Counted from the stretch's first letter, positions 3,697-31,543 are shown. The stretch: 64,000 bases of DNA from an uncultured Gammaproteobacteria bacterium (GCA_964634875.1 CAZWKA010000003.1:85928-149927); one strand, 5' to 3'. Notes: generated by a model not told the origin, from the sequence alone. A program made the numbers and translations.

Positions 3697-3711
3697 AGGT
3701 TTAACGTTATG

Positions 3712-3740
3712 ATTATAGAGGTTTGGTTATATTCTGTCAA
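3712..3740 (-). promoter_or_regulatory. Consensus sigma70 promoter for tRNA-Asp
   Basis: Minus strand reads TTGACA, 17 nt spacer, TATAAT, ending 15 nt upstream of the tRNA 5' end. Confidence 0.6.
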
Positions 3741-4311: not shown

Positions 4312-4320
4312 AGCGGTACT

Positions 4321-5128: not shown

Positions 5129-5226
5129 AAAAGTTTAAAGTGTAAAGCAAAAAGTATAAAATAGTTGTGTCGCCTTGGCGACCCGGTCATTTTTAGCTTT
5201 TAGCTTTTAATTTTTCGTTTGTTCAG

Positions 5227-8726: not shown

Positions 8727-8732
8727 TAATGT

Positions 8733-9326: not shown

Positions 9327-9348
9327 ACTATTCTTAGGTTCAAGCAGT

Positions 9349-10743: not shown

Positions 10744-10747
10744 ATTT

Positions 10748-13033: not shown

Positions 13034-13131
13034 AGCTGGCAGGATGGTATGCTCGTTTGTTTGGTAAAAAAACTTCTGAAAAACCAAAAAGAGTGCTATA
13101 CTAATGGATAATTCATTTTTTACCTTTTTTT

Positions 13132-13479
13132 ATGGCCCAGATTACCCCTTTTTCGGATGACTCCTTACCAGAATTTGAGGAGATGGCGATTTCCCAGGGA
13201 CGAAAGCTGGGCTTTTTGATTGCCAAGTCCGAACTTTTGAGTGATGAAGAAAAAGAAGCCTTGCTCACGGTGCTCCCTGAGATGTCGCCAGAGCAGCTGG
13301 ATGAATTAACTGTCACCCTTGAAGCTCAGCATGTACTTCAACAAAAAGACCCGAATGATGCTGTGGTCAAAGAGGGTTTGGTTCAAGCTGAAGACGAGTA
13401 TAACCAGGCGATGGATAAGGCAAGTGGTGATACGCTTAAGAAGCTTGATCAGCTGCAGAAAAAGGTAAGCGGTCGTTAG
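13132..13479 (+). CDS. Small acidic helical protein (115 aa)
   Basis: Glu/Asp-rich. Lies between giant ORFs, which suggests a chaperone or adaptor-like role. Confidence 0.45.
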   Translation: MAQITPFSDDSLPEFEEMAISQGRKLGFLIAKSELLSDEEKEALLTVLPEMSPEQLDELTVTLEAQHVLQQKDPNDAVVKEGLVQAEDEYNQAMDKASGDTLKKLDQLQKKVSGR

Positions 13480-13489
13480 AATATAACCT

Positions 13490-13711
13490 ATGCTTGATAG
13501 CGATGCAATGAAACCGTCCACGTCTGAACCAGAGAAAGGACTTACTCCAGAGGAGCAGGTTGCTTTGTACTCGGAGCAGATTGCTGAACTTGAGACGCTC
13601 CACCGCCAAGGTTTGGTTTTGAAGCACCAGTTGCTTGAGGCGGTTTCAAATGAAAAACGGGCAGCTCTTCTCCAGTCTATTAAGCAATCTATTCCTAAGA
13701 AAAATAACTAA
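13490..13711 (+). CDS. Small helical protein (73 aa)
   Basis: Tightly packed between neighbouring genes in the operon. Confidence 0.4.
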   Translation: MLDSDAMKPSTSEPEKGLTPEEQVALYSEQIAELETLHRQGLVLKHQLLEAVSNEKRAALLQSIKQSIPKKNN

Positions 13712-13717
13712 CAGCGT

Positions 13718-16700
13718 ATGCCTAAAAAAGCGCCTGGTAAGGAGGGTGGTGGAGAAGTTTCGCTGCAGGATAAGGTTTTGCGTTTAGTTACCCGAGAACA
13801 TAGTAATCCTGACCGTAAAGTGCTTGAAACAGCGCTCCATTTGCGTGAGAAAGTTAGGTTTCTCTCGGCTGAGCAGGCTCGGTTAGTCGATGAGTTGACT
13901 GCGTTGTATGATTTGCTTACCGATGTGGTTGGTGAAGACCAGCAAGAGAAACGAAAAGAACTTTTGTTGCAGGCAGAGAAGTATTTCGTTGCTGCACGCG
14001 AACATATCATGAAACAATTTCCAACACCAAAAGATGCCCAGAAGTTTACCGGTGTTGAAAAACCGGCTGAACAATTAACGGCTGCGGGAGCCGAAACCTG
14101 GCTCCAGGGAGAAGAAGCAAAATTGGCGCCATACAATCTTTCAAAGCGGCAGCGCAAAGATTTGGCCGCGGGTAAAAAGCAATTTGAAGTTTTGGTTGGA
14201 AAATTAAAGACTGGTCAGATTACCGAACATGAAATTTTGACGACCTATCCAAAAGCACAAAGAGAGGTGGTTGAGACCGTCCGCCTTATTCTAAAGAAAC
14301 AGCAAGACCAATCACCAGCCTTTGCTGCCCCGGAACCGGAAGAGTCCGAAGTGCAAGAAGAGGCTCCTCGACAAAAACGGGTTGTAGAACAAATTGCTTC
14401 GCCTGATGTTGACCCTCAAGTTGAGGAGGAGTCGGTTGAAACTGGAGCTGAAAATGAAACCGATGAACAAATTTTTGACCGGATCAAAGCCGAGATTGAA
14501 AGCGGTGCTTTTACACTTGAAAAAGCCAAAGCATCTATTGAATTGGCTCGGACTGTCGGCGGACAAACTATTCGTGATCCTCGAAATGAAGAAGACACTT
14601 TGGCGACAGGTTGTTATTGGTACGCTTTTGGGGAAAATGGTTTGCCTCCGGATGCAGCGAAAGCACTGGCGCGTACCATGCGTGATCACTTTACCAAAGG
14701 AAAGGCCGAACAAAAAGATCGGCAAGGTGAAGCACGGTTTAATGAAATAAAAGCCCGTTTTCTAGTTGATAACCCGGCAGATATTTTGGCAGTGGCCGAC
14801 GAAATGATTGAAAAGGCAAAATCAACCCCCAAAGGACTCATGTCGACATTCAAAGCGACTTCGCCGGAGCAACAGGTATCGGTTGGTGCTTTTTGGTTTT
14901 TTAAGATGTACAAAACACCCTATAAAGGGATAGATGCAGATGCTAAAGTTTTTGCTAGCCAAGCAGCGGCTCATTTCAAAGATAAGGAGCCAAAAGTCGA
15001 AAAATCAAAAGAAGTACCCTTGGTTCGCAATAAACCAGGTTTTAATGACGCTGCAGCTCAAAAAAATGCAGAAGAAGCGGAGTATAAGGCTCAGCACCCG
15101 GAACATCCCGCACCAGCTGAGTCGCACGAAACTGAGAGTGCGGGGGCGCACGTCTTTTCTTTAGCTGATGCTATTGAAGTATTCAATGCGCTTTCTGCAG
15201 AGCAGCAAAAAAAAGTTAAAACCAGACCACGAAGAAGTCCTGAAGAACCGTTTCAAGATCCAGCGTTTACTGTGGGTGAGGCTCGTTACTGGAAAGCGTT
15301 CTTGGACAATCCAGATGTTGAACAGGCTGAAGCGGAGGCCCTAGGTAAACAAGCTGAACTTGAGTTTAGATCAATGATGGATAAGTGCATTCGCCAGCTT
15401 ATTTCTAAAGATCCAGAACAGGCTGTTTCAACTGCTCAGGATATAATTGAGCAGGCGGAGCAGCTGGAGGACAGGGAAATTTTTCCTGAAAAGGGAAGTG
15501 AAGCGGACTCGGATGCAAATATCGTTGCTCTTGGTGCTTTTTTGGTGGCTAAACATTTTGGCGGTCGAAGTCGGTCTGAAGCTAATCAGTTTGCAGAGCA
15601 CGCAAAGGATATTTTTATGACGGCTGAAGCGGCGCTGGAAGAAGCAGTTCCAGACGTAGCACCGACTCCTCGAGAGAGCGCTGAACCGGCACCGAAAGTT
15701 GAGTCGGTATCTCAGCGGTCAGTTGAAAATGAAATGAAGGTGGTTAGTCATATTGATCCTATTTTTAAAGCTTTAGATGAGGGCGAAGATTTACAATTTA
15801 CTTTTGTGGAAATAAGTCGGGCCGCTGAAAACCTGCTTAGCTCACCAAATTTTCAGGATGGAAGTTTTGATCTCGCAAAAAAAACAAACACTGAGAAAAT
15901 TGTCAGAGCCCGTTATTTGTACGCCCTTAATGTTGAGAATCTGGGAGAGCGGAAAGCTGCCCAGCTGGCCAGCGAAACCAGAAAAGCGTGCCAGCGGATT
16001 GAAAAGCTGCAAAAACCGGTTGAAAAAGTACTGATTGTTCCGGATGAAGATGAGGAGGACGATGCTGACCGCCGAGCGGCTAGTATCGCTGCGCGCAGAG
16101 GGGATGTAGTAAGTACGCACTATACGAGTGGGGTGGCGAATGAAATGCGTCGGCCGGCAAAGGATCGGACTGATATGCCGGAAGTTGAACAGCTGTCTCC
16201 GGAAGAAAAGAATAAAGCGAGTCTCTTGAGTAATCTCAAACGAACGTATTACCGGCCATTGAGTGAAAATATTGAAACATTTACATTCAAAAAAATAACT
16301 GGCAAAGAAGCTGATGAGCGGGACGCATCCCGCTTACTCCGCCGCTTGTATGATGCGCAAGTTGCGCCTTTGGTTGCTGCTTTTGAAGCGGCTGATCCAA
16401 AGAATGCCGATGAACTGGCTCGTCTGGAACGGGAAATTAAGAGCGCGGTCAAAGACCTTGATCTTAAAAGACAAGTCGCTGAGAATGCGGAATCGCTCGA
16501 CTCTATATCGATTGATTGGTTGCGTGATGGTGTTAAGAAATTAGCTGAGCAAGAATACTCTGAAAAAATCACTCTCTATAATAGTTTAGTACGTGACAAG
16601 AATGAACTTATGACTGAGTTCTCCCTCTTGCGTGATTCGTTCCCAGAAATTGACCAAGGGTTAACTACGTTTGGCCGTGAGCTGGCGAAGGCTGACGCGA

Positions 16701-16849
16701 TATATAGAAAGTCCCGGCAACCAGGTATCAAAGGAACTGAGGCAGCCAAGGTTTTTCAAGAAGCTTTTGCTGAGGCTGTCCAACAAGCTGCTAAAGAACG
16801 TAATAGCGTCCTCTTTACGCTTGAGAAGATAACCGGGGTAGCCCTTTAG
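13718..16849 (+). CDS. Giant Glu/Lys/Ala-rich alpha-helical protein (1043 aa)
   Basis: Uninterrupted 3.1 kb ORF. Highly charged. No TM helix or signal peptide. Confidence 0.65.
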   Translation: MPKKAPGKEGGGEVSLQDKVLRLVTREHSNPDRKVLETALHLREKVRFLSAEQARLVDELTALYDLLTDVVGEDQQEKRKELLLQAEKYFVAAREHIMKQFPTPKDAQKFTGVEKPAEQLTAAGAETWLQGEEAKLAPYNLSKRQRKDLAAGKKQFEVLVGKLKTGQITEHEILTTYPKAQREVVETVRLILKKQQDQSPAFAAPEPEESEVQEEAPRQKRVVEQIASPDVDPQVEEESVETGAENETDEQIFDRIKAEIESGAFTLEKAKASIELARTVGGQTIRDPRNEEDTLATGCYWYAFGENGLPPDAAKALARTMRDHFTKGKAEQKDRQGEARFNEIKARFLVDNPADILAVADEMIEKAKSTPKGLMSTFKATSPEQQVSVGAFWFFKMYKTPYKGIDADAKVFASQAAAHFKDKEPKVEKSKEVPLVRNKPGFNDAAAQKNAEEAEYKAQHPEHPAPAESHETESAGAHVFSLADAIEVFNALSAEQQKKVKTRPRRSPEEPFQDPAFTVGEARYWKAFLDNPDVEQAEAEALGKQAELEFRSMMDKCIRQLISKDPEQAVSTAQDIIEQAEQLEDREIFPEKGSEADSDANIVALGAFLVAKHFGGRSRSEANQFAEHAKDIFMTAEAALEEAVPDVAPTPRESAEPAPKVESVSQRSVENEMKVVSHIDPIFKALDEGEDLQFTFVEISRAAENLLSSPNFQDGSFDLAKKTNTEKIVRARYLYALNVENLGERKAAQLASETRKACQRIEKLQKPVEKVLIVPDEDEEDDADRRAASIAARRGDVVSTHYTSGVANEMRRPAKDRTDMPEVEQLSPEEKNKASLLSNLKRTYYRPLSENIETFTFKKITGKEADERDASRLLRRLYDAQVAPLVAAFEAADPKNADELARLEREIKSAVKDLDLKRQVAENAESLDSISIDWLRDGVKKLAEQEYSEKITLYNSLVRDKNELMTEFSLLRDSFPEIDQGLTTFGRELAKADAIYRKSRQPGIKGTEAAKVFQEAFAEAVQQAAKERNSVLFTLEKITGVAL

Positions 16850-16867
16850 TTTTTAATGCCTGCTTAG

Positions 16868-17050
16868 ATGTCTATGTCAAAAAATGTATCCCAGCCAATA
16901 AAAGCAAAGGCTCAGGCGCTTGGCAGAAAAGTGAGCCAATTAAAAAATAAGATTGCGGAGACGCGTGAAGACGGGGAAGCCCTCAAGCGGCAGCTAACTG
17001 TAGCACTCGACCGGGCGAAAGTGAGCAAAATTTTAAAAAAAATTAAGTAG
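16868..17050 (+). CDS. Small basic coiled-coil protein (60 aa)
   Basis: Operon position. Reported only because of its context. Confidence 0.35.
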   Translation: MSMSKNVSQPIKAKAQALGRKVSQLKNKIAETREDGEALKRQLTVALDRAKVSKILKKIK

Positions 17051-17075
17051 CCTTTAGTTTTATTACTACGTTTTT

Positions 17076-20000
17076 ATGGCGAGCCCTGAAAAAAAATTGA
17101 TCACCCCTGAGTTCAAACTGCATGTGCAGCTGGTGAAAGAGCTGAATGAAGGTGACCGTAGCGACCAGCACCTGCAGGCCCTGTTTGAATTGAATGAGCG
17201 TTTTAAGTCAGTGAAGGATGTCATGAAAGACCTGCGCAGGCTCTTGAAAGAGTGGGGTGCGATCCATGACCAAAAAGAGGGGCTTCCCCCACGTGAACTC
17301 AACCAGGCAATTGCTGAGTATGCCAAAAAAGTAGTGGCTTTAGAAAACGAGTTGCTCGAGCTTGAGGCGGAAGAAAAAGAGGTTGAGGAGGCGTGGTGGA
17401 AGGAGCAGCAGGCTACAATTAAGTCTTTGGTAGCACAAAAAGATCCGCGTCATACCGCCAAAGACATCCAAAAAAGACGGGATTTAAAAAATGCTACATT
17501 TGAGGCGTTGGCTTTGTTTAAAAAGAATCAAGAGGGACAAGCGAGCCAGTCCGACCTTCACGAGTACGGGCGTTTCAAACGCCAGGTTATTGATTCGCTG
17601 GCGGAATTAGCTCCGCGGGTCCAGACAGACGAACTAGACGAGGCGGTTGATGCCCGTGATACTCAACCTAATCCGGTTGTCCCCGATGTGGCTTCCGAGC
17701 CAAAACCAGTCGATGCCCGTGATACTGCTCCACACACACCAGTTATGGATGATGAACCAGATGCCCGGGACACTGCGCCGCATACTCCAGTGTTTAATGA
17801 CACTAATCCTGATGCTCGTGACACCGCTCCTCATACGCCGGTTTTTGATGATCCTGATGCCCGTAACACTGCTCCCCACACACCAGTATTTGCCGAACCA
17901 CCAGCGCCGCCAAAGAAAAAAGGTTTTTGGGGTCGGATTAAAGAAGTCTTTTCTAGCAAAGAAGTTCAGAAAAAAGCAGCTAAAACAATTTTGTACGATG
18001 TGCCGATGCGCGCTCTGGGGGCAAAGGCAGTTTTTGATTGGATCGGTGCGTCTCCGCTTGCTGCTGCCCGTGTCGCTGAAATGGTCGGGGGTGAAAAATT
18101 AAAAAATAAAGTTAAGGGGTATGTTGGTGAGGGCAGGGGAGATGTTGCTGCTTACTATAAGGGCGGTCGCGAGGCTGAAGAAGAATTAGAACAACTGCAA
18201 CCTCAGATCGATGAAGTGGTGCTTGCGCTTGGTCGTGACATGAAAGAACGTCGTGCTCAGGACACGGACGCTGAGCTGCGCGTGCAAGCAAAATTAGATA
18301 CTTTGCAACACATGATCGCGGGGGCAAAAAATATCGCTCCGGCCGAGCGCGCTGTTTTGTTTGAATCGCTGACGGATATCGTTACAAGCTACGGTGAAGC
18401 CCAAAAAACTGCCGAAGCTGCTTTGCTCAAAAAAACCCAAGCGCTCCTTGAGCGTCATGTACGTAACCAGGCCAACAAATTGGCTTTGGTTCGTGATGGT
18501 GTTAACGCCATTCTTACTGCAGCTGGTTTACCAATGGTTCGGGCAGTTGCCTACGCTGGTATGAGTGCCTATGAAGCAGTGCGACGGGTAAGTCTTGAGC
18601 GTAAAGGCGGGGCGGCGGGTGAATCTAAAAAAGATGCTGCTAAACGGTATGCCAGTACTGTTGGAACTGCTGCGCGCGAATCGTTTAATGCTTTGCTCTT
18701 CAGAGGCCGCAAAAATGAAGGTTCGGTGGCGCAACGTGGTATTGAAGGTGTGGCTGCGTGGGGTCAGGCTCTGTCTGTCTTTGGTATCAGTGTTCAAGCG
18801 CTTGATGGTCATGCACCAACGAGTAGTGAAGGTTTCCAATCGCTCATTAATGCGATTAAAGAACGAGGTGCCGAAGGCGCACTTGACCAAATGGGTAGCA
18901 ATATTGCCCAGAATGCAGACCGTGTTGCCAATATCCCCGCTACGTTTGCCCGTGGCGTGGGGCATGCGTATGATGCGGGGCACACTGCGGTCGATTATGT
19001 AACTGGTACCTCGCATGATACTTCTCGGCTACTTGATGGTGCGCCAGAATTTTCTTTTAATAATTTTGCTCAAGAAAACCATCTGAGTAAACCAGAAGGA
19101 GATTTTTTGGCCGGTCTGCTTAAATACCCCAGCCTTCGCAATAATCCGGAAGTATTTCAAAATATTCTTAAGCTCTCGGATGCCGGCAACCATAATGGTG
19201 TAGCAGAACGAATACTTGGGGACGTTAAAATGTATACCTTCAAAGCAATGGTGGATGCCGGAGCTGGTAAAGAAGAGTTGGCCGGTTTTGTTCGCGATCA
19301 ACATTTTAGTAGTCGTCATTTGGAACACCTCAAAGGCGTACACCTGGGTTCAAAACCCAGTGCGGAAAAAATTGCTGAAGCGCTCCAGGCAGCGATGGGT
19401 AAGAAGTCAAGCGGCGTTTATGATGTCTTCAAAGCTAAGGCAACAAGTGAGTACCAACATGCCCTTGCCCAGAAACATGGTGACCATTTACGTTTGCGCG
19501 GAAATGATTTGCGTCTGTATGGCTTTGACAAAGATGGTAACCCAATTTTGGGTGGCAAAGGTACGGCAACGCTGCTGCACCGTTCTGGTGGAAGTCATGG
19601 TGTTCTTCAGGCTGGAAAATCCAGCGTGTCGTCTGCTCAGGCGGTTGAAGCGTATGCCAAGCAGCTTGGGTATGCTGATCCAGAAGCATATGAAGTATAT
19701 AAAGATAATGATGCCCTGGACGATGCCGGTGATATGTCACCGCCAGCCAGCTGGAAACTCGCCGGCTCGAGTTCGGCGGCCGAGAGTATACGGCATTTGG
19801 AAGAAATGTTTGCTATGGAAGACCCTCAAGCCTATGCGCTCTATCAAGCGGGTAAAGAGAACGGTGGTCTCGAAGATTTTGATACCTCTACCCTTGTCGC
19901 TAGTCGCACTGACATGGTGCCAAGTTCGTCTGGTTCAGTTACGGCTGAGGCAATGCAACGTGCTCCGGCGGCGGAGGCGTTGCGAACTACTCCTCGTGAA

Positions 20001-20675
20001 ACGGTTGTGGCTGCGTTCCATCCGCAAAAAGAACATGATTGGGGAGTTGATTCAAAAGCAGAAGCTCCGGTTGAAGCCCGTGCTCCTCGTGTTAGTTCCC
20101 GCGCCCTAGAAACTGCAGCTGGTTCAGAAGCTGCCCAGGGTGGATGGGGGATGGATGCGCAAACAGCGGAAAGGAATTTGAGTAGAATGGAAGCGGCTCT
20201 CGAGCGTTCGATTAATGGAGTTGACCTTACCGGCGCCGGTTTTTCCAAGAATCGTATTATGGATGCTTTTGCGGCTTGGCGTGACCGGGTGAGCGGTGCG
20301 ATTGAAGATGGAAAGCCGCTTGATGCGGGAGTTAAGGCCAGTGCCACCGAAGCACTGCAACGGTTTAATGTTTCTAGTAAAGATACTGAAGCTCTTGGGT
20401 TTGCGATTTTTGATGCTGATCCTAAGCTGCATAGTGTCGCACGAGAAATTAGTTTGATTATGGCACCTAAAGATCCTAATGTGGGTTTTGCGGCTAATGG
20501 TAGCCGCGGGGTCTGTGTCTTTGACCGGTCAGCCGGTACTTGGCAGTTTTCGACCTATTCAGACAAGCTTTTCTCAATGAGCGGCGGAAGATTGGTTAAA
20601 GCTGACCTCCAGGGCAATATAGAAAAGGTCTATGAAGACCCCCAAGCCTTTTTAGAAGTTCAGCGAGAAGAGTAA
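17076..20675 (+). CDS. Giant protein (1199 aa) with tandem DARDTAPHTPVF repeats
   Basis: 3.6 kb ORF containing four to five peptide repeats and a Pro-rich spacer. Confidence 0.65.
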   Translation: MASPEKKLITPEFKLHVQLVKELNEGDRSDQHLQALFELNERFKSVKDVMKDLRRLLKEWGAIHDQKEGLPPRELNQAIAEYAKKVVALENELLELEAEEKEVEEAWWKEQQATIKSLVAQKDPRHTAKDIQKRRDLKNATFEALALFKKNQEGQASQSDLHEYGRFKRQVIDSLAELAPRVQTDELDEAVDARDTQPNPVVPDVASEPKPVDARDTAPHTPVMDDEPDARDTAPHTPVFNDTNPDARDTAPHTPVFDDPDARNTAPHTPVFAEPPAPPKKKGFWGRIKEVFSSKEVQKKAAKTILYDVPMRALGAKAVFDWIGASPLAAARVAEMVGGEKLKNKVKGYVGEGRGDVAAYYKGGREAEEELEQLQPQIDEVVLALGRDMKERRAQDTDAELRVQAKLDTLQHMIAGAKNIAPAERAVLFESLTDIVTSYGEAQKTAEAALLKKTQALLERHVRNQANKLALVRDGVNAILTAAGLPMVRAVAYAGMSAYEAVRRVSLERKGGAAGESKKDAAKRYASTVGTAARESFNALLFRGRKNEGSVAQRGIEGVAAWGQALSVFGISVQALDGHAPTSSEGFQSLINAIKERGAEGALDQMGSNIAQNADRVANIPATFARGVGHAYDAGHTAVDYVTGTSHDTSRLLDGAPEFSFNNFAQENHLSKPEGDFLAGLLKYPSLRNNPEVFQNILKLSDAGNHNGVAERILGDVKMYTFKAMVDAGAGKEELAGFVRDQHFSSRHLEHLKGVHLGSKPSAEKIAEALQAAMGKKSSGVYDVFKAKATSEYQHALAQKHGDHLRLRGNDLRLYGFDKDGNPILGGKGTATLLHRSGGSHGVLQAGKSSVSSAQAVEAYAKQLGYADPEAYEVYKDNDALDDAGDMSPPASWKLAGSSSAAESIRHLEEMFAMEDPQAYALYQAGKENGGLEDFDTSTLVASRTDMVPSSSGSVTAEAMQRAPAAEALRTTPRETVVAAFHPQKEHDWGVDSKAEAPVEARAPRVSSRALETAAGSEAAQGGWGMDAQTAERNLSRMEAALERSINGVDLTGAGFSKNRIMDAFAAWRDRVSGAIEDGKPLDAGVKASATEALQRFNVSSKDTEALGFAIFDADPKLHSVAREISLIMAPKDPNVGFAANGSRGVCVFDRSAGTWQFSTYSDKLFSMSGGRLVKADLQGNIEKVYEDPQAFLEVQREE
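17649..17895 (+). repeat. In-frame tandem repeat (about 39-45 nt unit) encoding DARDTAPHTPV(F/M)DD
   Basis: Repeated GATGCCCGTGA(T/C)ACTGCTCC(A/T)CA(C/T)ACACCAGT units are visible in the sequence. Confidence 0.7.
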
Positions 20676-20723
20676 GATTGATGGTTTTTATCGAATTAGC
20701 GCTCTTGCCCTCAGTATATATAA

Positions 20724-20762
20724 AAAACACCTTACCACCCTCGTGGAAGGTGTTTTTATTTT
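20724..20762. terminator. Bidirectional intrinsic terminator closing the long operon
   Basis: AAAAACACCTT-loop-AAGGTGTTTTT with flanking A and T tracts. Confidence 0.7.
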
Positions 20763-20853
20763 ATTTAGATCTGGTAAAGAGTTTGGGTGGGGTTGTGAAG
20801 TAGCAAAAAAAGCCTTATTTTAGCCAAAAAACTGTTTTTACGCGCTGCAGCCC

Positions 20854-20882
20854 TTGACAAAACCCAAAAAGTATGCTATAGT
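20854..20882 (+). promoter_or_regulatory. Near-consensus sigma70 promoter facing the GC-rich island
   Basis: TTGACA, 17 nt spacer, TATAGT. Confidence 0.55.
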
Positions 20883-20997
20883 ATGTCGTTACCTCAAAAA
20901 GAGACTAGTATACGTAAGAGAGACGTATCCTAGACACCGGCCCAAATTGATGCTATATCCTCTCTACACTTAGGGAGTTTTTTTAAAACCAACGCGT

Positions 20998-21165
20998 TCT
21001 TTACAATATCACACTATTCTACACTGCTTCTGAAAGAAGACAGGACATCTTTCTCTTGAATCTACTATAGATTGAAGAAAGAAACGCCCTGTCTTCGGAC
21101 AGCAAGCACCAACTTGATCCCCACGCCGGGGATTGCTACGGATCACTGAGACAAAGGAGCCGCCC
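20998..21165 (+). promoter_or_regulatory. Structured leader 1: TCTTTACAA box, then a long imperfect hairpin plus an ATCCCC/GGGGAT hairpin, then an SD
   Basis: AAGACAGGACAT...CCCTGTCTT hairpin. CTGTC-TTCG-GACAG tetraloop. CCCCACGCCGGGG hairpin. AGGAG SD 7 nt before the ATG. Confidence 0.5.
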
Positions 21166-21612
21166 ATGAACGCTTCCAAGATTGCCCTCGGTTTCGCCGC
21201 CCTCGCCATCGCCCTCAGCACCGGCTGCAGCGGCACCCCGTTCTCCGGCAGCAGCGGCATCGACGCCGGCCGCAGCCTCAGCCGGAGCACGACGACGGAG
21301 ATCGACACCACCACCACCGTCGTCGACGGTCCCGCCTTCACCAAGGCGGACAGGGCGCTCCTCGCCCGGCTGCGCACCACGGTCTACGGTGGGAAGAAGA
21401 CGGTCGGTCTCGTCCGCCGCGTCGACTACCTCGAGTACAGGACCGGGCACAAGGCCGACCTCGACGCCCTGGCCGAGATGGACGCGCGCACCAAGCTCGC
21501 CCAGATCGAGGCCCGCCGCGCCACCAAGGCCCCCAAGCTCGCCCAGAACGACGGCGGCACGGTCAACGTGCTCGTCCGCACCCCCGCGGACGCCACGGTC
21601 GAGAAGCGGTAG
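21166..21612 (+). CDS. Lipoprotein (148 aa), GC-rich
   Basis: Start MNASKIALGFAALAIALSTGCSG (lipobox) with a good SD. GC3-rich codons. The ORF-track start at 21133 is upstream of the SD. Confidence 0.6.
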   Translation: MNASKIALGFAALAIALSTGCSGTPFSGSSGIDAGRSLSRSTTTEIDTTTTVVDGPAFTKADRALLARLRTTVYGGKKTVGLVRRVDYLEYRTGHKADLDALAEMDARTKLAQIEARRATKAPKLAQNDGGTVNVLVRTPADATVEKR

Positions 21613-21793
21613 CTACGGCTGCCGTTGGTATAGGATAGTGTGAAGGTCGCCCGCGCATATTGGCGCGGGGGATCGAGCGACCGGGAGTCATACGTAGAGG
21701 TTGGCGATATAATCGCCGACCGCTCGAGACTCCTGGTCGACCTCGCTTTTTCTTCAGCATTACGATGATGCAGAAAAAGTGAGTGAAGTTGCT

Positions 21794-21924
21794 CTTTACA
21801 AACGCAAGACAGGACATTTTTAACTTCAATATCGTTGAAGTAAGAAACGCCCTGTCTTGCGAAAAACAGATTGGTCCCCACGCAGGGACTGTAACGGCTC
21901 ACTGACAGAATGAAGGAGTCCATC
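21794..21924 (+). promoter_or_regulatory. Structured leader 2, paralogous to leader 1
   Basis: Same TCTTTACAA box. AAGACAGGACAT...CCCTGTCTT stems with a different but still complementary inner hairpin. GTCCC/GGGAC hairpin. CACTGA and AAGGAG elements conserved. Confidence 0.5.
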
Positions 21925-22578
21925 ATGAAGGCCATCCGCACGCTCTCCCTCATCGCCGCCGCTCTCGTCCTCACCGCTGGCATCGCCCGCGCGGACGATG
22001 CGGGCATGAAGACCACGGTCATCAAGTGCACGAAGGCGGAGATCGCCGCCGGGACCTGCACGATCGACGTGACCCTGCCCACCCCGGCGCCCCCCGTCGT
22101 CGTGGCTCCCTCCGAGCCGCCCCCCCCGCCCCCCCCCCCCCCCCCCGGCGGGGGCCCCCCCCCGCCCCTCGGCGCCCCCCCCCCCCCCGCGCACCACCCC
22201 CCCCCGAGCCGCCCCCGCCGCCCCTCGCCCCGCCCCCGGTCGTCGTCACCCCCGAGCCGATCGTCGCCCCGCCCCGCCTCGCGAACAGCCCCGCCCTGCA
22301 GAAGGCCTTCACCCAGACGGCTGAGGAGCACAAGGGCCTCAGCCGCCAGGCCAAGCTCGGGATCGGCTTCGGTGTCGGCGGCGCGGTCCTCGCTGGTGTC
22401 GCGGTCGGCCTCATCGTGTGGCACGTCACCAACGACGGCCTCTACCAGATCAAGCCGCCGATCACCGTGGCGCCCAACGCCCTGACGAACCTCGGCAGCG
22501 GCCCCCTCCGGCTCTCCGGCGCGTCCGTCACCCCGATCCCCGGCGGTGCGGTTCTCTCCGCGGCTCTCGTCTTCTAGA
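21925..22578 (+). CDS. Signal-peptide, proline-rich, C-terminally membrane-anchored protein. The reading frame shifts within the poly-C tracts (frameshifted or phase-variable).
   Basis: Frame 1 (from 21925) encodes a signal peptide, a domain, then poly-Pro. A different frame (22026 track) carries poly-Pro, PPVVVTPEPIV, a TM helix (LGIGFGVGGAVLAGVAVGLIVW), and ends at 22578. The two frames are joined only through the C12-C17 homopolymers. Confidence 0.5.
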
Positions 22579-22694
22579 CCCCCTTCCTCACATGAGGAGC
22601 AGCTCCCGGTTCCTACCGGTCGAAGCTCGCTCCTCGCCCTTTCAACAACGATGAAACTTTCGTGGTTGTTGAAAGGGTTGAAAGACCCACAAGT

Positions 22695-22805
22695 TCTTTA
22701 CAACAGGTTCGGGAAATTTTAACTGCCTAAGTACTATAGGCAAGTGGAATGTCCCGAACCGACAATGTCCCAGCCTAAGAACTGGGCCAAAACCTGGAGA
22801 AGTGC
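22695..22805 (+). promoter_or_regulatory. Structured leader 3 (TCTTTACAA box plus GTTCGGGA...TCCCGAAC hairpin plus CCCAG/CTGGG hairpin)
   Basis: Shares the box and two-hairpin architecture with leaders 1 and 2. Contains AATGTCCC twice. Confidence 0.45.
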
Positions 22806-23795
22806 ATGAACACGATGACTCGCGGTTTGCTTGTCCTTTGTCTCGCCCTCGCCGCCGCGTGCGGCCCCGACCGCACCCTCTGCGCCCCGGGCGCCGAGGC
22901 GATCCTCGCCGTCGGCAACAACACCACCGATTCCCACGGCTTCCTCTGCGGCTGCGACAGCACCTCCGAGTGCGTCGCGGGCCAGCGGTGCGGGTGGTCC
23001 TCCGACTACAAGCGCAACGTCTGCTCCGACAACCTGCTCCAGTCCCTGCCCCCCGGGAGCAATCCCTGCAGCCTGAACAATGGCGGCTGCCGGTCGGACG
23101 AGACCTGCGTCTACAACACCGCCCTGAACTCGGTGTCCTGCACGCCGCCGCCCAAGCCCCAGTGCAACATCACCTGCGGCGCGGGCCAGAAGGCGGCCAC
23201 GAACGCCAACGGGGGCTGCTTCTGCGCCCCGACCTGCGAGGGCGTGGTGTGCGGCGCGGGCCAGACCTGCCAGCTCAACTTCGACCGCGGCCTGTGCGTG
23301 AGCAACTGCCGCGCCCCCTACGTCGAGTGCGGCGGATCCTGTGTCCTGACCCAGCTCAACAACAGCCACTGCGGCGGCTGCGGGAACATCTGCGGCCCCG
23401 GCTCGACCTGCCAGGGCGGCACCTGCCAGCAGATCCCGGCCCCCCAGGATGTGACCTGCCATGGGATGCGGTTCACGCTGGCCCAGGGCACGAACACGAA
23501 CACCACGGCGCGCGAGTGCCGCGGCTACGACATCCGCGGCGACCAGGCCTGGTCCATCGCCCCGCCGACCCCCGGCACCGAGACCAGCGCTCCCAACGGC
23601 ATCTGCGCCGCGACCTGCCTCTCGCAGGCCGGCACCGAGACGGTCGTCCCGGCCAACGGCAGCGCGATCTGGATCCCCGGTGGCAACCAGGACGTCCCGC
23701 GCTACACGCGCCCCGGCTGCCCGCGCCTCCGCTGGCACCCGGTCGGCGACCCCTTCGGCGCCGGCTTCGCGTGGGACGCCTTCTGCGAGCAGTAG
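22806..23795 (+). CDS. Cysteine-rich secreted lipoprotein with EGF-like and CxxGQxC repeats
   Basis: Signal peptide plus lipobox LAAAC. Repeated C-x-x-G-(A/Q)-G-Q-x-C units and a CSLNNGGCRSDETC EGF-like module. GC3-rich. The antisense 334 aa ORF is judged spurious. Confidence 0.65.
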   Translation: MNTMTRGLLVLCLALAAACGPDRTLCAPGAEAILAVGNNTTDSHGFLCGCDSTSECVAGQRCGWSSDYKRNVCSDNLLQSLPPGSNPCSLNNGGCRSDETCVYNTALNSVSCTPPPKPQCNITCGAGQKAATNANGGCFCAPTCEGVVCGAGQTCQLNFDRGLCVSNCRAPYVECGGSCVLTQLNNSHCGGCGNICGPGSTCQGGTCQQIPAPQDVTCHGMRFTLAQGTNTNTTARECRGYDIRGDQAWSIAPPTPGTETSAPNGICAATCLSQAGTETVVPANGSAIWIPGGNQDVPRYTRPGCPRLRWHPVGDPFGAGFAWDAFCEQ

Positions 23796-23833
23796 GCTCG
23801 ACCTAGCTCTCGGCTTCTAGCCGATTGAGCAAG

Positions 23834-23863
23834 GGGCGGGCACACTTCACCGTGTGCCCGCCC
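23834..23863 (+). terminator. GC-rich hairpin (12 bp perfect stem) ending the island
   Basis: GGGCGGGCACAC-ttcacc-GTGTGCCCGCCC. No T-tract follows. Confidence 0.45.
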
Positions 23864-24052
23864 GACCCCTTATCCTGATCATGAACAAAACGTTCGTGGC
23901 AAGAATAAGAGGAAAGAAAATAAAAAAATAATCTTTCAACAATTACTTCTGACGCAGAAATAGTTGTTGGCAGATTACGTACTTCGGTACTAATCCACCA
24001 ACCCAAAAATTCCGCCTATCTCTCTGGGTGGATTTTTGTTTATGGACCAGTA

Positions 24053-24084
24053 CTAAGCAAAGTAGGCAGAGTAAGCAGATTAAG
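24053..24084. repeat. Short palindromic repeat family, copy A (left arm flanking the 4HB gene)
   Basis: AGCAAAGTAGGCAGAGTAAGCAG. Inverted partner at 24463-24500. Related copies at 29411-29480 and 41377-41410. Confidence 0.7.
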
Positions 24085-24463
24085 TTTTGTTTTGTGGAAG
24101 ATAGCTTCTTTGTACTTGGATCCAGCGTGTGAGGAGTTTTCCGACTTCCTCGCAAAGTTGTAGGGCAGAATCGTGCTCTGCTTTTTTTATATATTCCAGA
24201 TCTTTGGCTAAAAGAAAGTGGTATTTTGTCTCTTCAAGAGATGCGTCAGCAATATTATAAAAATGAAGACTGTCGCGTAAATTTCTTCTTCTAAAACCCT
24301 CAACTATATTAGTAGGTACCGAAGCTGCAGACCGCCGCACTTGGCTAGTCAATCCAAATAATTCTGTTTTTGGGAAATCGCTAGTTAGTTTATAAACTAA
24401 AAGAACCAAGGTATGTGCTTTCTGCCAAACTTGTAAATCCCGAAAAATTTTGATTGTCGCCAT
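24080..24463 (-). CDS. Four-helix-bundle protein (TIGR02436 family; 23S-rRNA intervening-sequence protein / DGR Avd-like)
   Basis: Family signature ...LTSDFPKTELFGLTSQVRRSAASVPTNIVEGF... within a 127 aa protein. Confidence 0.8.
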   Translation of the reverse strand: MATIKIFRDLQVWQKAHTLVLLVYKLTSDFPKTELFGLTSQVRRSAASVPTNIVEGFRRRNLRDSLHFYNIADASLEETKYHFLLAKDLEYIKKAEHDSALQLCEEVGKLLTRWIQVQRSYLPQNKT

Positions 24464-24500
24464 ACTTACTCTGCTTAGAACTTACTCTGCTTACTTTGCT
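24463..24500. repeat. Short palindromic repeat family, copy A' (right arm, inverted; tandem CTTACTCTGCTTAG units)
   Basis: Its reverse complement is AGCAAAGTAAGCAGAGTAAG, matching the left arm with one mismatch. Confidence 0.7.
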
Positions 24501-25941
24501 GGCTAGCCGCCCAATACCCCCACACGGCCCAGAACCACCAGATGACTGGGGTGTGGTGGAGCATGTTGTCGGACAAGCTCATGATGAGATAGATAAGGAT
24601 GCTCAGAATGAACGAAAAATGGATCCAGCGTCCACTGAGGAGTGTTTTAAATTCGTGGTACATGAGGGTGACGAAGATGCAGAGATACAAGAAAAGCCCG
24701 ATCAGGCCGCTTTCAAAAGCGACTTTGAGATAGTCGTTGTGGGCTTCGGAAGTGTTGTCGAATAAATTTTCGACCCCTTTGTTATAGTCCCAGACTTTGC
24801 TAAATGAGCCATAGCCATAGCCAAGGTAGGGCCGGGCCTGGAAGAGGGGAATAATTTTATTAGCAATATCTGCGCGCCATTTGATGGAATCGGCATCTTC
24901 GTTGCGGCCGGTTAGGCGGCCAATGACACTATTTGATTGCAGGTTGATATTGTAGGTGTGGCCGACCCAGTTATTGATTGGGTAAAAGAGCGTATAAAAA
25001 AGTATGGCGCCACCCACCAGGTATAGGAATACTTTTTCGTAATAAAAAAAACAAATTGCCAGAATAAAAGCAGCCAGGCCGATCCAAGCTACGCGCGTAT
25101 AGGTAAAAACAATAATAAGCGTCAGGAAGGCAAAAGCAAGCGGTGTGTACGTATGCCAGTGTTCGGTGGTGCGCCCAGAGAACCGGCGGAAAAATTGGGC
25201 CACAGGATGGAGGAACTGGTCGACGAGGTTCCTTTTTTCAAAGCGTAGCTGGAACCGATAGGTATAATCCGCCAGTACAATGAACAAGACGACAGCGAAA
25301 GTGGCGAGGAGGTTCGGGTGGGCAAACGTGCCAAAAATACGGTTGGTTACGCCGTCGATGGTCATGCCGCCACCAGTAAGTAATTGGTAAAGAGCTAAGA
25401 GCAGTGGAAAACCGGCGGCAATAATCAGGCTTAGGTAAAAGGGCCAGACAAATTTGTCGCCTTCTTTGCGGCGCAGAATATTGCAGACGCCGAAAAGGGC
25501 AAAGAGATTGGCGGCTTTCAGTGTTTCGGTAACAGTAGAAGAAGGATCGAAACTATAAAGAAAGCTAAAACCGCACCAGGCAATGAAAATAAGCCAGGGG
25601 TAGCGGGCAGGAATCTGGTTCCAATAGCTCCGGTTCTTAATAAAAAAATAAACTGCCCAGCCCGCTAGAAGGAGTGAGATGGCTGCGTTGAGGTTAAAGG
25701 TGACGCTACCGAGGGTAAAGAAGGCATAGTCCCTCAGGCCGTCAATCGTAGGCCGAATCGCTAAGAACAAGAGGATGGCTCGCTCACCAAAAAGCTTGTG
25801 AAGGACAATGAGGGCAATGAGGAGAAACGCAAAGACATCGCCGCCGCTGGTTGGGTTAAAAACCGTAAAAGCAATCAGGCTAATGATGAGCCAGGCCCAC
25901 AAAGCAAAGGAATCACGCATAGTTGAGCGAAAAAACGCCAA
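24475..25941 (-). CDS. O-antigen ligase/polymerase-family (Wzy_C/WaaL-like) membrane protein
   Basis: At least ten TM helices. SEAHNDYLKVAFESGLIGL motif. A large periplasmic loop. Confidence 0.7.
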   Translation of the reverse strand: MAFFRSTMRDSFALWAWLIISLIAFTVFNPTSGGDVFAFLLIALIVLHKLFGERAILLFLAIRPTIDGLRDYAFFTLGSVTFNLNAAISLLLAGWAVYFFIKNRSYWNQIPARYPWLIFIAWCGFSFLYSFDPSSTVTETLKAANLFALFGVCNILRRKEGDKFVWPFYLSLIIAAGFPLLLALYQLLTGGGMTIDGVTNRIFGTFAHPNLLATFAVVLFIVLADYTYRFQLRFEKRNLVDQFLHPVAQFFRRFSGRTTEHWHTYTPLAFAFLTLIIVFTYTRVAWIGLAAFILAICFFYYEKVFLYLVGGAILFYTLFYPINNWVGHTYNINLQSNSVIGRLTGRNEDADSIKWRADIANKIIPLFQARPYLGYGYGSFSKVWDYNKGVENLFDNTSEAHNDYLKVAFESGLIGLFLYLCIFVTLMYHEFKTLLSGRWIHFSFILSILIYLIMSLSDNMLHHTPVIWWFWAVWGYWAASQQSKQSKF

Positions 25942-29410: not shown

Positions 29411-29480
29411 AAGCAGATTAGGCAGAGTAAGCAGATTAAGCATTGGTTTACTTACTCTGCTTAGTACTTACTCTGCTTAG
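29411..29480. repeat. Short palindromic repeat family, copy B (both arms adjacent, an empty-site hairpin)
   Basis: AAGCAGATTAGGCAGAGTAAGCAGATTAAG-cattggttta-CTTACTCTGCTTAGTACTTACTCTGCTTAG. Confidence 0.7.
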
Positions 29481-30857
29481 TACTTCAACAAGTTCTTCAA
29501 TCATTCCTCTGAATCCGTGACTGCCTAAGAACACGACTACACCCCCTTTGGGTGTTTTTTCGTTGAGATAGGTAATGAGTTTTTTATCGTCATCGATATA
29601 TGAAACAGCAGTGTGTGTTTTGGAGATAATTTTGGCCAGCTTGTCGCCTTCGAGTATTTTTGTATCTTGGGCAGAATCCTTTTTTACCAAGGTCAGGCGG
29701 GGAATAACTACTTCGTCAGCGGCGCTAAAGGCGTGTGCATACCCGGGGGCAGCTTGGAGCTGGCGATTGCCGGTGTTTGGCTCAAATACGGCAATAATTT
29801 TTCCTGAGTACAGTTTTCGGAGCGACGATAACACGGCTTCGGCTTTGCTCGGCGAATGGGCGATGTCGTCAAAGATTGTTGCGCTGCCTTCATACCGTTT
29901 TTCCAGGCGGCGTTTCATGCCTTTAAAACTAGCGATAGCGGCAATTATTTTTTCTGGTTCTATACCCATTTTAGTAGTCAGTGCAAAACAACCCGTGATA
30001 TTGTCGGCCATGTATTCTCCGAGCGTGGCCGTTTGTAGTTTGTAGGCAGTGCCGTCATGCGTGATAGTGAATTTGAGGCCGTCTTTCGTTTGAGCAATAC
30101 CGGAATACCTAAAATCGTTGTCAGTATTTTTTCCATAACTGACAACGCTCAGCTGTTTGGCTTTTTTGGTGGTAATGACGGGCAGTGCTTTTTCAGAAAC
30201 AACCAGAAGTCCGGCTTTAGGTAGCGAGTCGACTAATTTTTGAAATGCTTCGCGGTATAGCGCTTCGGTTGGATAGACGTCAGCATGATCCCAAACAACT
30301 GAAGTGAGGAGTAGTTCGGTAGGAGCGTAGTATGCAAACTTAGGACCTGTGTCCCAGCGTGAGGCTTTGTATTCATCGCCCTCGACCACGGCCCAGTCGC
30401 TTTTGGTGAGTTCTGCGGCCGGCAGGTCGTTCAGGGCGAGCCCGCCAAACATGTAACTCGGATCGTACCCGGCTTCTTTGAGGATCCAGGTGAGCAGTGT
30501 GGTCGAGGTCGATTTACCATAGGTACCGGCACAGACGATGGAATGTTTTTTGCGTTTGATAAAAAAATCACGGATCACTTCGGGGTAGGATTTATAGGGA
30601 AGGTTTTTTTCTTGGACGGCCAGCCATTCCGGGTTGCTAGAACCGGCAACATTCCCAACAATCACTAAATCGGGCGTGCCCATATTTTCGGGATGCCAGC
30701 CTGGGTAGAAGTCAATGTCAGCGTCTTTGAGGTGAGTCGAAACCGGTGGGTAAAATCCGACGTCTGAGCCGGTAACTTTGTATCCTTCGCGCTTAAAGGC
30801 GAGGGCAAGGGCGCTCATCGCAACGCCGCAGATGCCGATGAAGTGGAAGTGTTTCAT
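29448..30857 (-). CDS. Mur ligase family, MurC/Mpl-type
   Basis: N-terminus MKHFHFIGICGVAMSALA. GTYGKSTST P-loop. Mur ligase middle and C-terminal domains. Confidence 0.7.
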   Translation of the reverse strand: MKHFHFIGICGVAMSALALAFKREGYKVTGSDVGFYPPVSTHLKDADIDFYPGWHPENMGTPDLVIVGNVAGSSNPEWLAVQEKNLPYKSYPEVIRDFFIKRKKHSIVCAGTYGKSTSTTLLTWILKEAGYDPSYMFGGLALNDLPAAELTKSDWAVVEGDEYKASRWDTGPKFAYYAPTELLLTSVVWDHADVYPTEALYREAFQKLVDSLPKAGLLVVSEKALPVITTKKAKQLSVVSYGKNTDNDFRYSGIAQTKDGLKFTITHDGTAYKLQTATLGEYMADNITGCFALTTKMGIEPEKIIAAIASFKGMKRRLEKRYEGSATIFDDIAHSPSKAEAVLSSLRKLYSGKIIAVFEPNTGNRQLQAAPGYAHAFSAADEVVIPRLTLVKKDSAQDTKILEGDKLAKIISKTHTAVSYIDDDKKLITYLNEKTPKGGVVVFLGSHGFRGMIEELVEVLSRVSTKQSK

Positions 30858-31543
30858 AGTGGTTTCTGAAAATATGCTAACCAAAAGTTCCGTTTGTAAC
30901 TGCGATTGTTCATTTTGGAATAACTTTCTTTTTTATCAAGGTTCAGTAAGGTGAAATATTTGCCGTACATGGTTGTGAAATCCAGCCGATCAAAGACGCG
31001 TTCGGTTAACCCAAGTTCCTTCATATAATAGGTGTCTTTTTCACGCCCCGGACTTTTTTTGAGGAGTTCTTTGGCATTTTTATCGCCTTCTTTACAAAGT
31101 GCTTTGACGAACAGATAACCACCTGGTTTGAGGGTGCGGTTTATTTCGGTTAGGTATACTTCCCGTTCCTGTTCATTGAGCGAGTTTGATGAGGTAACAT
31201 CCATAATAAGATCAAACGTGAGGTCGGGAAAGGGGAACGATTCACCAAAGCTTTTAATCAGGTAGTTTACCGATACGCGCATTTTTTGGGCGTCGCCTTT
31301 GGCAATGGCAACTGCGGTCGGTGAGATTTCGATGCCAGTAACAACGGCGCCCTCTTTGGCTAGGTGGTTGGCGTTGCGCCCGGTGCCGCTCCCCAGGTCG
31401 AGGGCGCGTTTGCCTTCCAAATCAAAATCACGTTCTTTACGCAAAAATTTTAAGAAACGCAAAGTGTCTTTTTGTGGTTCAGGGTTGAAGTGAAGGAGTT
31501 TGCTCTGTCGGTACTCCTGTTCCCAGACTTTTCCTTGCGCCAT
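30854..31543 (-). CDS. Class I SAM-dependent methyltransferase
   Basis: LDLGSGTGRN motif I. Confidence 0.7.
   Translation of the reverse strand: MAQGKVWEQEYRQSKLLHFNPEPQKDTLRFLKFLRKERDFDLEGKRALDLGSGTGRNANHLAKEGAVVTGIEISPTAVAIAKGDAQKMRVSVNYLIKSFGESFPFPDLTFDLIMDVTSSNSLNEQEREVYLTEINRTLKPGGYLFVKALCKEGDKNAKELLKKSPGREKDTYYMKELGLTERVFDRLDFTTMYGKYFTLLNLDKKESYSKMNNRSYKRNFWLAYFQKPL

Follow-up and report, generated by a model that had tools for sequence, protein, structure and literature searches.

A high-GC array of envelope-protein genes in a Candidatus Magasanikbacteria genome, probably native and maintained in its composition

Results

Within a 64-kb stretch of assembled DNA (GCA_964634875.1, CAZWKA010000003.1:85928-149927; hereafter the window, to which all coordinates refer unless a relative's locus is named), we analyzed an array of three plus-strand genes at 21166-23795 (genes 1-3, g1-g3) whose coding sequences (CDSs) are far richer in guanine plus cytosine (GC) than the surrounding genome. 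The enrichment is essentially confined to the CDSs and is present in syntenic arrays of many relatives, whose fetched loci are designated L followed by a number. This array is probably a native, vertically inherited set of fast-evolving envelope-protein genes of Candidatus Magasanikbacteria, a lineage of the candidate phyla radiation (CPR), that is GC-rich by maintenance.

Composition changes at the start and stop codons

The mean GC of the window was 45%, and 300-bp windows outside the region gave 0.452 ± 0.051 with a maximum of 0.637, while GC of 0.67-0.88 was found across 21.1-23.8 kb, with an island peak of 0.83 set against those background windows. Over the CDS bodies it was 0.71, 0.76 and 0.71 for g1, g2 and g3, respectively, which bears out the same-strand three-gene island of about 70% GC in a low-GC genome described by an initial annotation of this DNA. 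The change occurs at the gene borders: the 100-nt flanks of the CDSs had a GC of 0.48-0.54 before the starts and 0.56-0.59 after the stops, and a step of 0.14-0.22 was found between the 100 nt on either side of each array start and stop codon. The spacers had a GC of 0.41-0.51 (intergenic baseline, 0.42), and the leader hairpins, though freely covarying, were AU-rich (GC 0.36-0.45). Low-GC leaders had also been proposed in the initial annotation; about 50% GC was indeed found between the cassettes, but the internal spacers, at 0.50-0.51, slightly exceed the baseline.

Codons in the true frames of the array had GC at third (GC3), second (GC2) and first (GC1) positions of 0.94-0.96, ~0.58 and ~0.61, respectively, versus 0.44, 0.38 and 0.55 in 36 background open reading frames (ORFs). 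Third positions were occupied by C, G, T and A at frequencies of 0.68, 0.28, 0.04 and 0.00; NNA codons numbered 1 in ~650, and Lys, Glu and Gln were encoded exclusively by AAG, GAG and CAG. C at third positions (C3) was 2.4-fold more frequent than G (G3), opposite to the local skew: the plus strand is G-rich over the whole window, with G3 exceeding C3 in plus-strand genes and the reverse in minus-strand genes. A negative GC skew (−0.13 to −0.28) was found only in the array within the 64 kb, which argues against a strand-symmetric mutational or conversion bias. The few A/T-ending codons were concentrated in the first ~12 codons of the array genes, a 5′ ramp that is a signature of translation initiation and must have arisen in place.

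Ordinary expression-linked codon bias was considered and found insufficient, as the genes of ribosomal protein L20 and IF3 had a GC3 of just 0.51-0.53 and the next-highest gene in the 64 kb reached 0.65. This gene, 6200-6664 (+), encodes a small lipoprotein (MRVQKLVFVFGLLAGC..) and has a GC of 0.58. Separately, the background genes displayed a weak correlation between GC3 and hydrophobicity (rho 0.39, p 0.006).

Syntenic arrays recur in related genomes

The MurC-like protein encoded at 29448-30884 (−) was 49-71% identical to MurC of 50-odd metagenome-assembled genomes (MAGs), mostly of Candidatus Magasanikbacteria or Patescibacteria. This similarity, reaching 71% with named Magasanikbacteria MAGs, assigns the host genome to Candidatus Magasanikbacteria and agrees with the CPR origin guessed initially. 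The MurC matches also gave ~880 kb of flanking DNA of relatives. Scanned for local excesses of GC, this DNA yielded segments of 0.65-0.84 GC in ten loci (L006, L007, L008, L012, L013, L023, L026, L027, L048 and L051), located a few kb past GHL15/Wzy. These segments lay invariably on the strand equivalent to the plus strand of the window and encode secreted, often Cys-rich proteins, including lipoproteins, Stig1-repeat proteins and a collagen-like protein.

In total, a GC3-enriched array was found at the syntenic site in 10 of the 12 evaluable relatives, and additionally in L060 and L061, within a shared order of large proteins, array, Wzy, GHL15, PALP and MurC. Array GC3 was 0.70-0.95 in ten genomes, against a background of 0.34-0.58 (logit shift 1.5-3.3), and the window is the extreme case. 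The window Wzy was 49-54% identical to the array-adjoining Wzy of L006, L051, L060 and L061.

Four loci (L058-L061) were found by using an alignment of the C-terminal domain of g3 as query, while genome and metagenome scans with a full-length g3 alignment gave no confirmed locus. In L058, the promoter and a short RNA precede three GC-enriched cassettes, of which the last encodes a g3-family lipoprotein; L059 holds one g3-family gene; and in L060 the C-terminus of a g3-family gene is followed by a convergent Wzy gene (52% identical to that of the window). The 18-kb L061 displays the order Wzz, a 1321-aa protein, three cassettes, Wzy, GHL15, PALP, MurC and MraY, with a GC3 of 0.66-0.75 in the cassettes versus 0.34 in the background. 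The g3 family thus keeps its place beside Wzy in L060 and L061 and has further members in L001, L058 and L059. Cassette 3 occurs as an orthologue at one and the same place in the different genomes, its GC3 being graded from 0.67 to 0.98. Cassettes 1 and 2 of the window have no homologous counterparts in the arrays of L058/L061.

A chimeric assembly, in which a high-GC contig had been joined into a CPR contig, was one of the explanations offered initially, and the abrupt GC change and the frequent ending of relatives' contigs within the array, where assemblers evidently struggle, would be in keeping with it. However, there is not one GC switch but six, each of them at a start or stop codon. Moreover, the left junction, from the short RNA to the first cassette, was reproduced in L006, L058 and L061, and the right junction, from the last cassette to Wzy, in L006, L060 and L061. 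Since these assemblies come from different studies and assemblers, a chimera is excluded for practical purposes.

Synonymous sites have turned over at high GC

The contig L001 has the same g2-spacer-g3 arrangement as the window. When g3 of the two was compared, four-fold degenerate sites under conserved amino acids matched at 65%, where 60% is expected by chance, and 32 of the 38 four-fold differences were C/G exchanges, with GC3 at 0.96-0.98 in both genes. This pattern indicates an enrichment at equilibrium: the synonymous sites have fully turned over without drifting toward the genomic GC3 of 0.44.

Stop codons were also distinctive. All three array genes end in TAG, and TAG terminated 13 of the 16 high-GC3 ORFs listed among all loci; 3 of the 16 were shadow frames, and ~11 of the 13 true genes had TAG. 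Background genes used TAA, TAG and TGA at 62%, 21% and 18%, respectively. High-GC bacteria typically favour TGA, and the TAG stops are therefore not donor-like; TAG is the product of TAA under A-to-G pressure at position 3. Taken together, the CDS-limited enrichment, the saturated synonymous sites, the TAG stops, the excess of C over G and the AT-richer spacers indicate a composition that is limited to the CDSs and actively maintained.

These data bear directly on import. A recent island acquired by horizontal gene transfer (HGT), with a high-GC group like Myxococcota or Actinobacteria as the donor, would account for the atypical composition (GC 0.71-0.76 against 0.45, GC3 0.95 against 0.44) and for a codon usage like that of high-GC bacteria, and the Stig1-like Cys repeats of g3 are of a kind that has been likened to Myxococcus repeat proteins (PMC4736985). 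Nevertheless, we judge this origin very improbable. Instead of being absent or patchy, the array occupies a syntenic site in at least ten relatives, with graded GC3 and with native-type leaders common to them, and its saturated synonymous sites have undergone no drift to the host GC. A search of 5.8 billion protein clusters found no close homologue of g1-g3 in a high-GC lineage; g3 has a single array-borne orthologue besides generic Cys-repeat matches. Neither an integrase, a tRNA nor direct repeats were found at the array borders (17076-25941); a serine recombinase and a tRNA-Asp lie at 2-3.7 kb. The foreign import put forward in the initial annotation is thus contradicted by its own preset test, as the genes proved to be native and similarly GC-rich across relatives.

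Products of the array and the reading frame of gene 2

Signal peptides with a lipobox, read by eye against the pattern [LVI..][ASTG][GAS]C, were found in g1 (MNASKIALGFAALAIALSTG-C, ending in ..ALSTG-C) and g3 (..LLVLCLALAAA-C), and an AxA signal-peptidase site in g2. The prediction of secreted or lipoprotein products is accordingly upheld.

The g1 protein had no homologue in sequence searches of the 5.8 billion protein clusters, Pfam or PDB. The C-terminal part of the g2 protein was 53% identical to its homologue in L001, beyond which no homologue was found among the protein clusters. The g3 protein, with a Cys content of 10.3%, appeared two-part by profile search: residues 164-211 are generic Stig1-like Cys repeats with ~960 protein matches, and a C-terminal β-sandwich domain of ~115 aa (VCHG..CAxTC..DVPRW..GCxRL..WDxxC) is common to a handful of small lipoproteins. 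Its sole orthologue among the clusters (P0001, 58% identity) is encoded on L001. No Pfam match was obtained for g1-g3 (none at E ≤ 0.01 for g3), while two of the g3 matches carry PF04885 (Stig1) and the Pfam gathering threshold is reached by array proteins from L008 and L012. Searches of PDB sequences with the array proteins gave no match, and exact look-up in public assemblies retrieved none of the window proteins. Long antisense ORFs (e.g., 22734-23738) were rejected as compositional shadows, as they are not conserved in L001.

The reading frame of g2 is not continuous as assembled. It had been annotated as a single ORF at 21925-22578; we found instead that it is split over two different frames, an N-terminal one at 21910-22485 and a C-terminal one at 22026-22577, with the switch lying in a series of poly-C runs (Table 1). 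Adding one C to the C18, the C14 or the C9 run at 22197 (the three runs tested), or removing two C, gave a continuous ORF of 217 aa. The C8-C18 runs thus form a mutable repeat inside the ORF that sets the reading frame, as in contingency genes, and are a candidate site of slipped-strand phase variation or a homopolymer miscall. In 947 kb, comprising the window and all fetched loci, G/C runs of at least 9 were almost confined to arrays, namely those of the window, L013 (G17) and L023. The G17 run of L013 (17518-17534) lies in frame in a collagen-like lipoprotein gene, and the run of L023 is at 15943-15951.

A promoter-proximal RNA and structured cassette leaders

The near-consensus promoter noted in the initial annotation is present (Table 1), and a nearly identical promoter, of the form CTTGACAAAA..TGTGnTAnnnT, also heads the arrays of L006, L058 and L061. 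It does not, however, feed g1 directly, as an RNA of ~100 nt with a terminator at 20960-20985 intervenes. This RNA comprises a hairpin (20905-20933) whose loop reads AAGAGAG and a terminator stem at 20960-20977 followed by a U run to 20985, and the 5′ arm of the terminator, CUCUCU, is complementary to the hairpin loop. Promoter, RNA and terminator were found together at 20854-20985 in the window, 20818-20962 (−) in L006, 146-290 in L058 and 5692-5836 in L061. The 6-bp stems differ in all four genomes (ATACGT, GTAATA, GCTTAC and GTAGTG), whereas GAGAGAG in the loop never varies and CUCUCUC is found in the terminator; this covariation was read directly, with no count of pairs, because MAFFT did not bring the hairpins into register. 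Pairing of GAGAGAG with CUCUCUC was the preferred fold in L058 (minimum free energy) and in the L058/L061 consensus. Having a promoter-proximal terminator with a conserved, mutually exclusive pairing, as attenuators do, 20888-20985 is a candidate new element heading the array, either a terminator/antiterminator attenuator or a small RNA. An Rfam scan of 20600-24200 (E ≤ 1) gave no match.

Each of the three cassettes displays the modular layout of leader, CDS and hairpin that had been proposed for them. The leaders are structured, 110-170 nt in length, and consist of a conserved GYTCTTTACAA box of their own, a long hairpin, a short GC hairpin and a GGAG-type ribosome-binding site. The box was also found before L006a, L006b and L001 g3, with TTGACA at the equivalent place in L058, and it may be part of a promoter. 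All three leaders folded far better than shuffled sequences (z −4.2 to −5.3). In an alignment of the long-hairpin family (three copies from the window, two from L006 and one from L001), compensatory changes were found at 12 of 18 pairs, and the L001 orthologue of the leader 3 hairpin has another sequence with the fold kept. A covariance model built on these six members found nothing else in 864 kb, which indicates that the family is narrow at the sequence level. Hairpin B after g2 (CCTTTCAACAAC..GTTGTTGAAAGG) was almost identical in L001, while the flanking proteins are just 53-58% identical.

Leaders 1 and 2 of the window were 83% identical over 110 nt and those of L006a and L006b 80%, so that likeness within a genome exceeded likeness between genomes, while the CDSs behind them are unrelated. 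Such homogenisation within genomes would be expected from co-evolution with a genome-specific trans-acting factor. A duplicated cassette scaffold carrying foreign ORFs had been suggested initially; the near-identical leaders before unrelated CDSs agree with the scaffold, but the ORFs are not foreign.

Leaders of this kind might alternatively serve, together with the terminators, as recombination handles for repeated cassette replacement from a shared mobile pool of high-GC genes, like integron cassettes or phage morons. We consider this improbable, if less so than a single recent import. The leader-ORF-terminator units with a composition unlike their surroundings, the conserved leaders before unrelated CDSs and the non-homologous cassettes 1 and 2 of the window and L058/L061 are all in line with it. 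Yet no integrase and no attC-like GTTRRRY core were found at the array, the nearest recombinase being 17 kb off in a separate element, and hairpin B (..TTTCAAC..GTTGAAA..) misfits the RYYYAAC/GTTRRRY cores. Phage, plasmid and IMG/VR collections held no informative match, only a low-complexity poly-C one. Furthermore, cassette 3 is an ortholog at a fixed position, and a mobile pool would leave the lasting GC-richness of its members unexplained.

Table 1. Coordinates of the array genes, RNA elements and flanking features in the window
Feature	Position	Strand	Description
Intrinsic terminator of the upstream 1199-aa gene (17076-20675)	20724-20762	+	AAAAACACCTT..AAGGTGTTTTT then T run; read from sequence
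Near-consensus sigma-70-type promoter	20854-20882	+	TTGACA-17-TATAGT, TG upstream
Attenuator-like leader/small RNA	20888-20985	+	~100 nt; hairpin, then terminator
GYTCTTTACAA box, possible −35	20996-21006; 21791-21801; 22693-22703	+	Read from sequence
Leader 1 long hairpin (hairpin C)	21037-21095	+	Covariance-model match 49 bits; fold z = −5.3
Leader 1 short GC hairpin (hairpin D)	21116-21134	+	Upstream of AAGGAG ribosome-binding site
Gene 1 (g1)	21166-21612	+	148-aa predicted lipoprotein; GC 0.71, GC3 0.96; TAG stop; orphan
Compound hairpin and T run (terminator) after g1	21674-21752	+	Read from sequence
Leader 2 long hairpin	21806-21858	+	Leader 1 paralogue; covariance-model match 56 bits
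Gene 2 (g2)	21925-22577	+	Signal peptide, poly-Pro stalk, hydrophobic anchor; out of frame as assembled
Poly-C tracts C8, C18, C9, C14, C9	22120-22205	+	Inside g2
Hairpin A after g2	22595-22635	+	
Hairpin B after g2	22638-22676	+	Sequence given in the text
Leader 3 long hairpin	22706-22760	+	Covariance-model match 54 bits
Leader 3 short hairpin	22769-22786	+	
Gene 3 (g3)	22806-23795	+	329-aa lipoprotein; Stig1-like Cys-rich repeats and C-terminal domain; GC3 0.96
Two hairpins after g3	23806-23869	+	First conserved in L001; read from sequence
Convergent Wzy/O-antigen-ligase-like gene	24475-25941	−	Pfam Wzy_C; conserved right border of the array

Selection and biased conversion as possible sources of the enrichment

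Given a native array, the enrichment might be held by selection on the coding mRNA or its translation, with codons preferred in the order NNC >> NNG > NNU >> NNA and the preference relaxed in the 5′ ramp. We regard the case for this cause as evenly balanced within the native scenario. We favour it over others for the sharp CDS limits, the asymmetry of C over G, the 5′ ramp and the spacers, which are AT-rich; neither import nor a regional mutation bias would fit as well.

Alternatively, gene conversion biased toward GC, or another bias tied to recombination, might raise GC regionally at a hypervariable locus, with the spacers kept AT-rich by promoter and meltable-hairpin constraint. In our view this is unlikely, although it deserves more weight than any form of import. 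It would suit a locus whose gene content varies among relatives, within which many relatives' contigs break, and whose leaders are homogenised within genomes. The rise of GC1 and GC2 along with GC3 and the internal spacers of 0.50 against a baseline of 0.42 would likewise be accommodated, and a precedent exists in Borrelia vls, where a locus of 49% GC resides in a genome of 28.6% GC and selection has been invoked for it (PMC11499132). Gene conversion, however, is strand-symmetric, while C3 exceeds G3 2.4-fold in the array against the local skew. It is also hard to reconcile with the GC steps at start and stop codons, with hairpin stems that covary freely and are still AU-rich, and with the 5′ ramp of A/T-ending codons, and no second copy of any array CDS that could act as a silent donor was found within the 64-kb window.

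Several observations weigh against a native array maintained by selection on its coding sequences. L001 is a 1.7-kb contig without a low-GC flank, its host being inferred solely from shared intergenic elements; in L002 and L020, which are syntenic, the genes are ordered differently and no array was found in the DNA that could be retrieved. The internal array spacers (0.50-0.51) are slightly above the intergenic baseline of 0.42. No convincing −10 element follows the TTTACA boxes, and the g2 frameshift could be a homopolymer error. GC2 is raised as well (0.58 vs 0.38), with Lys partly swapped for Arg; this points to some nucleotide-level pressure, unless protein function itself calls for much Gly, Ala, Pro, Thr and Cys. 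The raised GC2 indicates that the pressure is not purely synonymous, which leaves room for a nucleotide-level force such as biased gene conversion.

On the native reading, expression would start at the strong promoter, and the ~100-nt RNA would adopt either the terminator fold or, when GAGAGAG pairs with CUCUCUC, an antiterminator fold. The conserved box and covarying leader hairpins of each cassette could provide sites for a genome-specific trans-acting factor, and slippage in the poly-C tracts of g2 may turn this gene on and off. The array probably serves variable surface display, for host attachment or phage evasion; the variable gene content, the breaking of contigs in the array and the near confinement of poly-C runs to it agree with this role. 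It stands beside polysaccharide-polymerase genes, in what is most likely an episymbiotic-type bacterium.

A bolder possibility, which we put forward tentatively and consider doubtful, is that this CPR lineage keeps a separate "codon dialect" (almost exclusively NNC/NNG, no NNA, TAG stops) for one class of variable envelope genes, ending at the CDS borders and retained throughout the divergence of the lineage. Such a dialect would keep array mRNAs translatable or stable while the rest of the proteome shuts down, for instance upon loss or cleavage of U34 tRNAs, or under ribosome-dependent mRNA interferases that need a third-position A, or under AU-directed RNases. Alternatively, the array mRNAs might be strictly translation-dependent as C-rich substrates of Rho. 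In either version, the attenuator RNA and the co-evolving leader hairpins would be the switch. If true, this would be a gene-class-specific compositional code in bacteria, beyond HGT, mutation bias or expression-level codon bias.

Comparison with known systems

Homopolymer-tract phase-variable surface genes are known in Neisseria, Haemophilus, Campylobacter and Helicobacter. Like these, g2 contains long poly-C runs inside its ORF, is assembled out of frame and is restored by a one-base change; unlike them, its tracts encode a poly-Pro stalk and reach 18 nt, and g2 is a candidate only, for which sequencing error is possible. Attenuators and riboswitch-type leaders share with 20888-20985 a strong promoter, a short RNA, exclusive terminator/antiterminator pairings and an operon-like array downstream, but the element has no Rfam family and could be a free-standing small RNA. 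Phage morons and integron cassettes resemble the cassettes as compact units of ORF and hairpin with deviant composition, and morons have their own promoter; the array differs in its fixed position and vertical inheritance and in having no phage or integron context, integrase or attC core.

The closest parallel in composition, Borrelia vls, is a native variable surface-lipoprotein locus with GC far above its genome and a strong strand skew, credited by its authors to selection (PMC11499132). In contrast to vls, the array has no silent cassettes in 64 kb, its coding strand is C-rich rather than G-rich and G4-prone, its enrichment is limited to the CDSs and follows codon positions with GC3 up to 0.96, and each of its genes has a structured leader and encodes an unrelated protein. 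Among CPR bacteria, large Cys-rich extracellular proteins have been described in Peribacteria (~1,655 aa; genome of 58.5% GC), which vary between strains and were proposed to act in attachment (PMC4736985). These share with the array products a signal peptide, a high Cys content and a weak similarity to Myxococcus Cys-rich repeats, but are very large, and neither a compositional anomaly nor cassette leaders are reported for them in that paper (PMC4736985). Literature searches found no report of such arrays or of such an anomaly in CPR genomes. We place the array among compositionally deviant variable surface-protein loci, in which the maintenance of composition is possibly a new principle.

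Compositional outliers are routinely taken as foreign DNA or binning errors, and are filtered from MAGs or scored as HGT. With a native GC3 jump of 0.5, such filters would drop or mislabel real CPR surface-protein genes, in this case likely host-attachment or phage-interface proteins. The locus also offers a natural experiment on synonymous sites held off equilibrium in a small, slow-growing bacterium, in which selection on mRNA or translation can be set against biased conversion, and it adds two uncatalogued RNA elements from a lineage with almost no known regulation.

Neighbouring genes and additional observations

Envelope genes surround the array: Wzz at 8733-9326, Wzy_C and a GHL15/FG-GAP protein, followed by PALP, MurC and MraY. 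Upstream, a run of large plus-strand proteins without a Pfam match (356, 464, 761, 1043 and 1199 aa) occupies 7656-20675, with a possible link to the array. In the 1199-aa protein, DARDTAPHTPVF repeats are present, and the 1321-aa protein of L061 is its counterpart just upstream of the array there; L058 is without this large protein, and positions 1-125 ahead of its array hold the 3′-terminal part of a gene which, by its sequence motif only (..NERPHLGKG..), is transposase-like with a C-terminus of the rve type.

Between g3 and Wzy lies a gene (24080-24463, −) for a 23S-rRNA-IVP/bAvd-like four-helix bundle. It is not at this site in L006, L060 and L061, occurs elsewhere in relatives and looks mobile. 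A link to diversity-generating retroelements through this gene was rejected, as no reverse transcriptase was found among the Pfam-scanned ORFs, which cover part of the window, and the gene is absent from the site in the three relatives.

Two other regions deviate in composition. Positions 1-3700 are low in GC (38-40%) and probably form a small integrated element. They encode a replication protein (1351-2151, PF23343) and, at 2169-3662, a large serine recombinase, the end of which overlaps with tRNA-Asp (3621-3696, −). The stretch of lowest GC (33-35%), 56000-59000, encodes a 530-aa papain-like peptidase and GNAT protein and a 241-aa orphan, and would be suspected of foreign origin on more conventional grounds than the high-GC array.

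In relatives, a second class of high-GC3 orphan genes (0.91-0.95) without a signal peptide or Pfam match was observed (L016 5143-7050, L018 6477-8098, L021 6124-6197, L041 6542-7738 and L028 1622-2662). A tRNA-Trp upstream of MurC adjoins those of L016 and L018. The class may represent something distinct from the arrays and is possibly truly mobile. The same deviation was seen in a housekeeping-type protein, the H+-pyrophosphatase at 2405-4486 (−) of L049, with a GC3 of 0.82 in a Parcubacteria contig of 45% GC. Finally, the window encodes a tmRNA (5226-5619, −; tag ANLFSKAKSALANAFSTFAPAMA) and a tRNA-Glu with anticodon CUC (55660-55732, +), the latter meaning that the genome has at least one dedicated reader of NNG codons.

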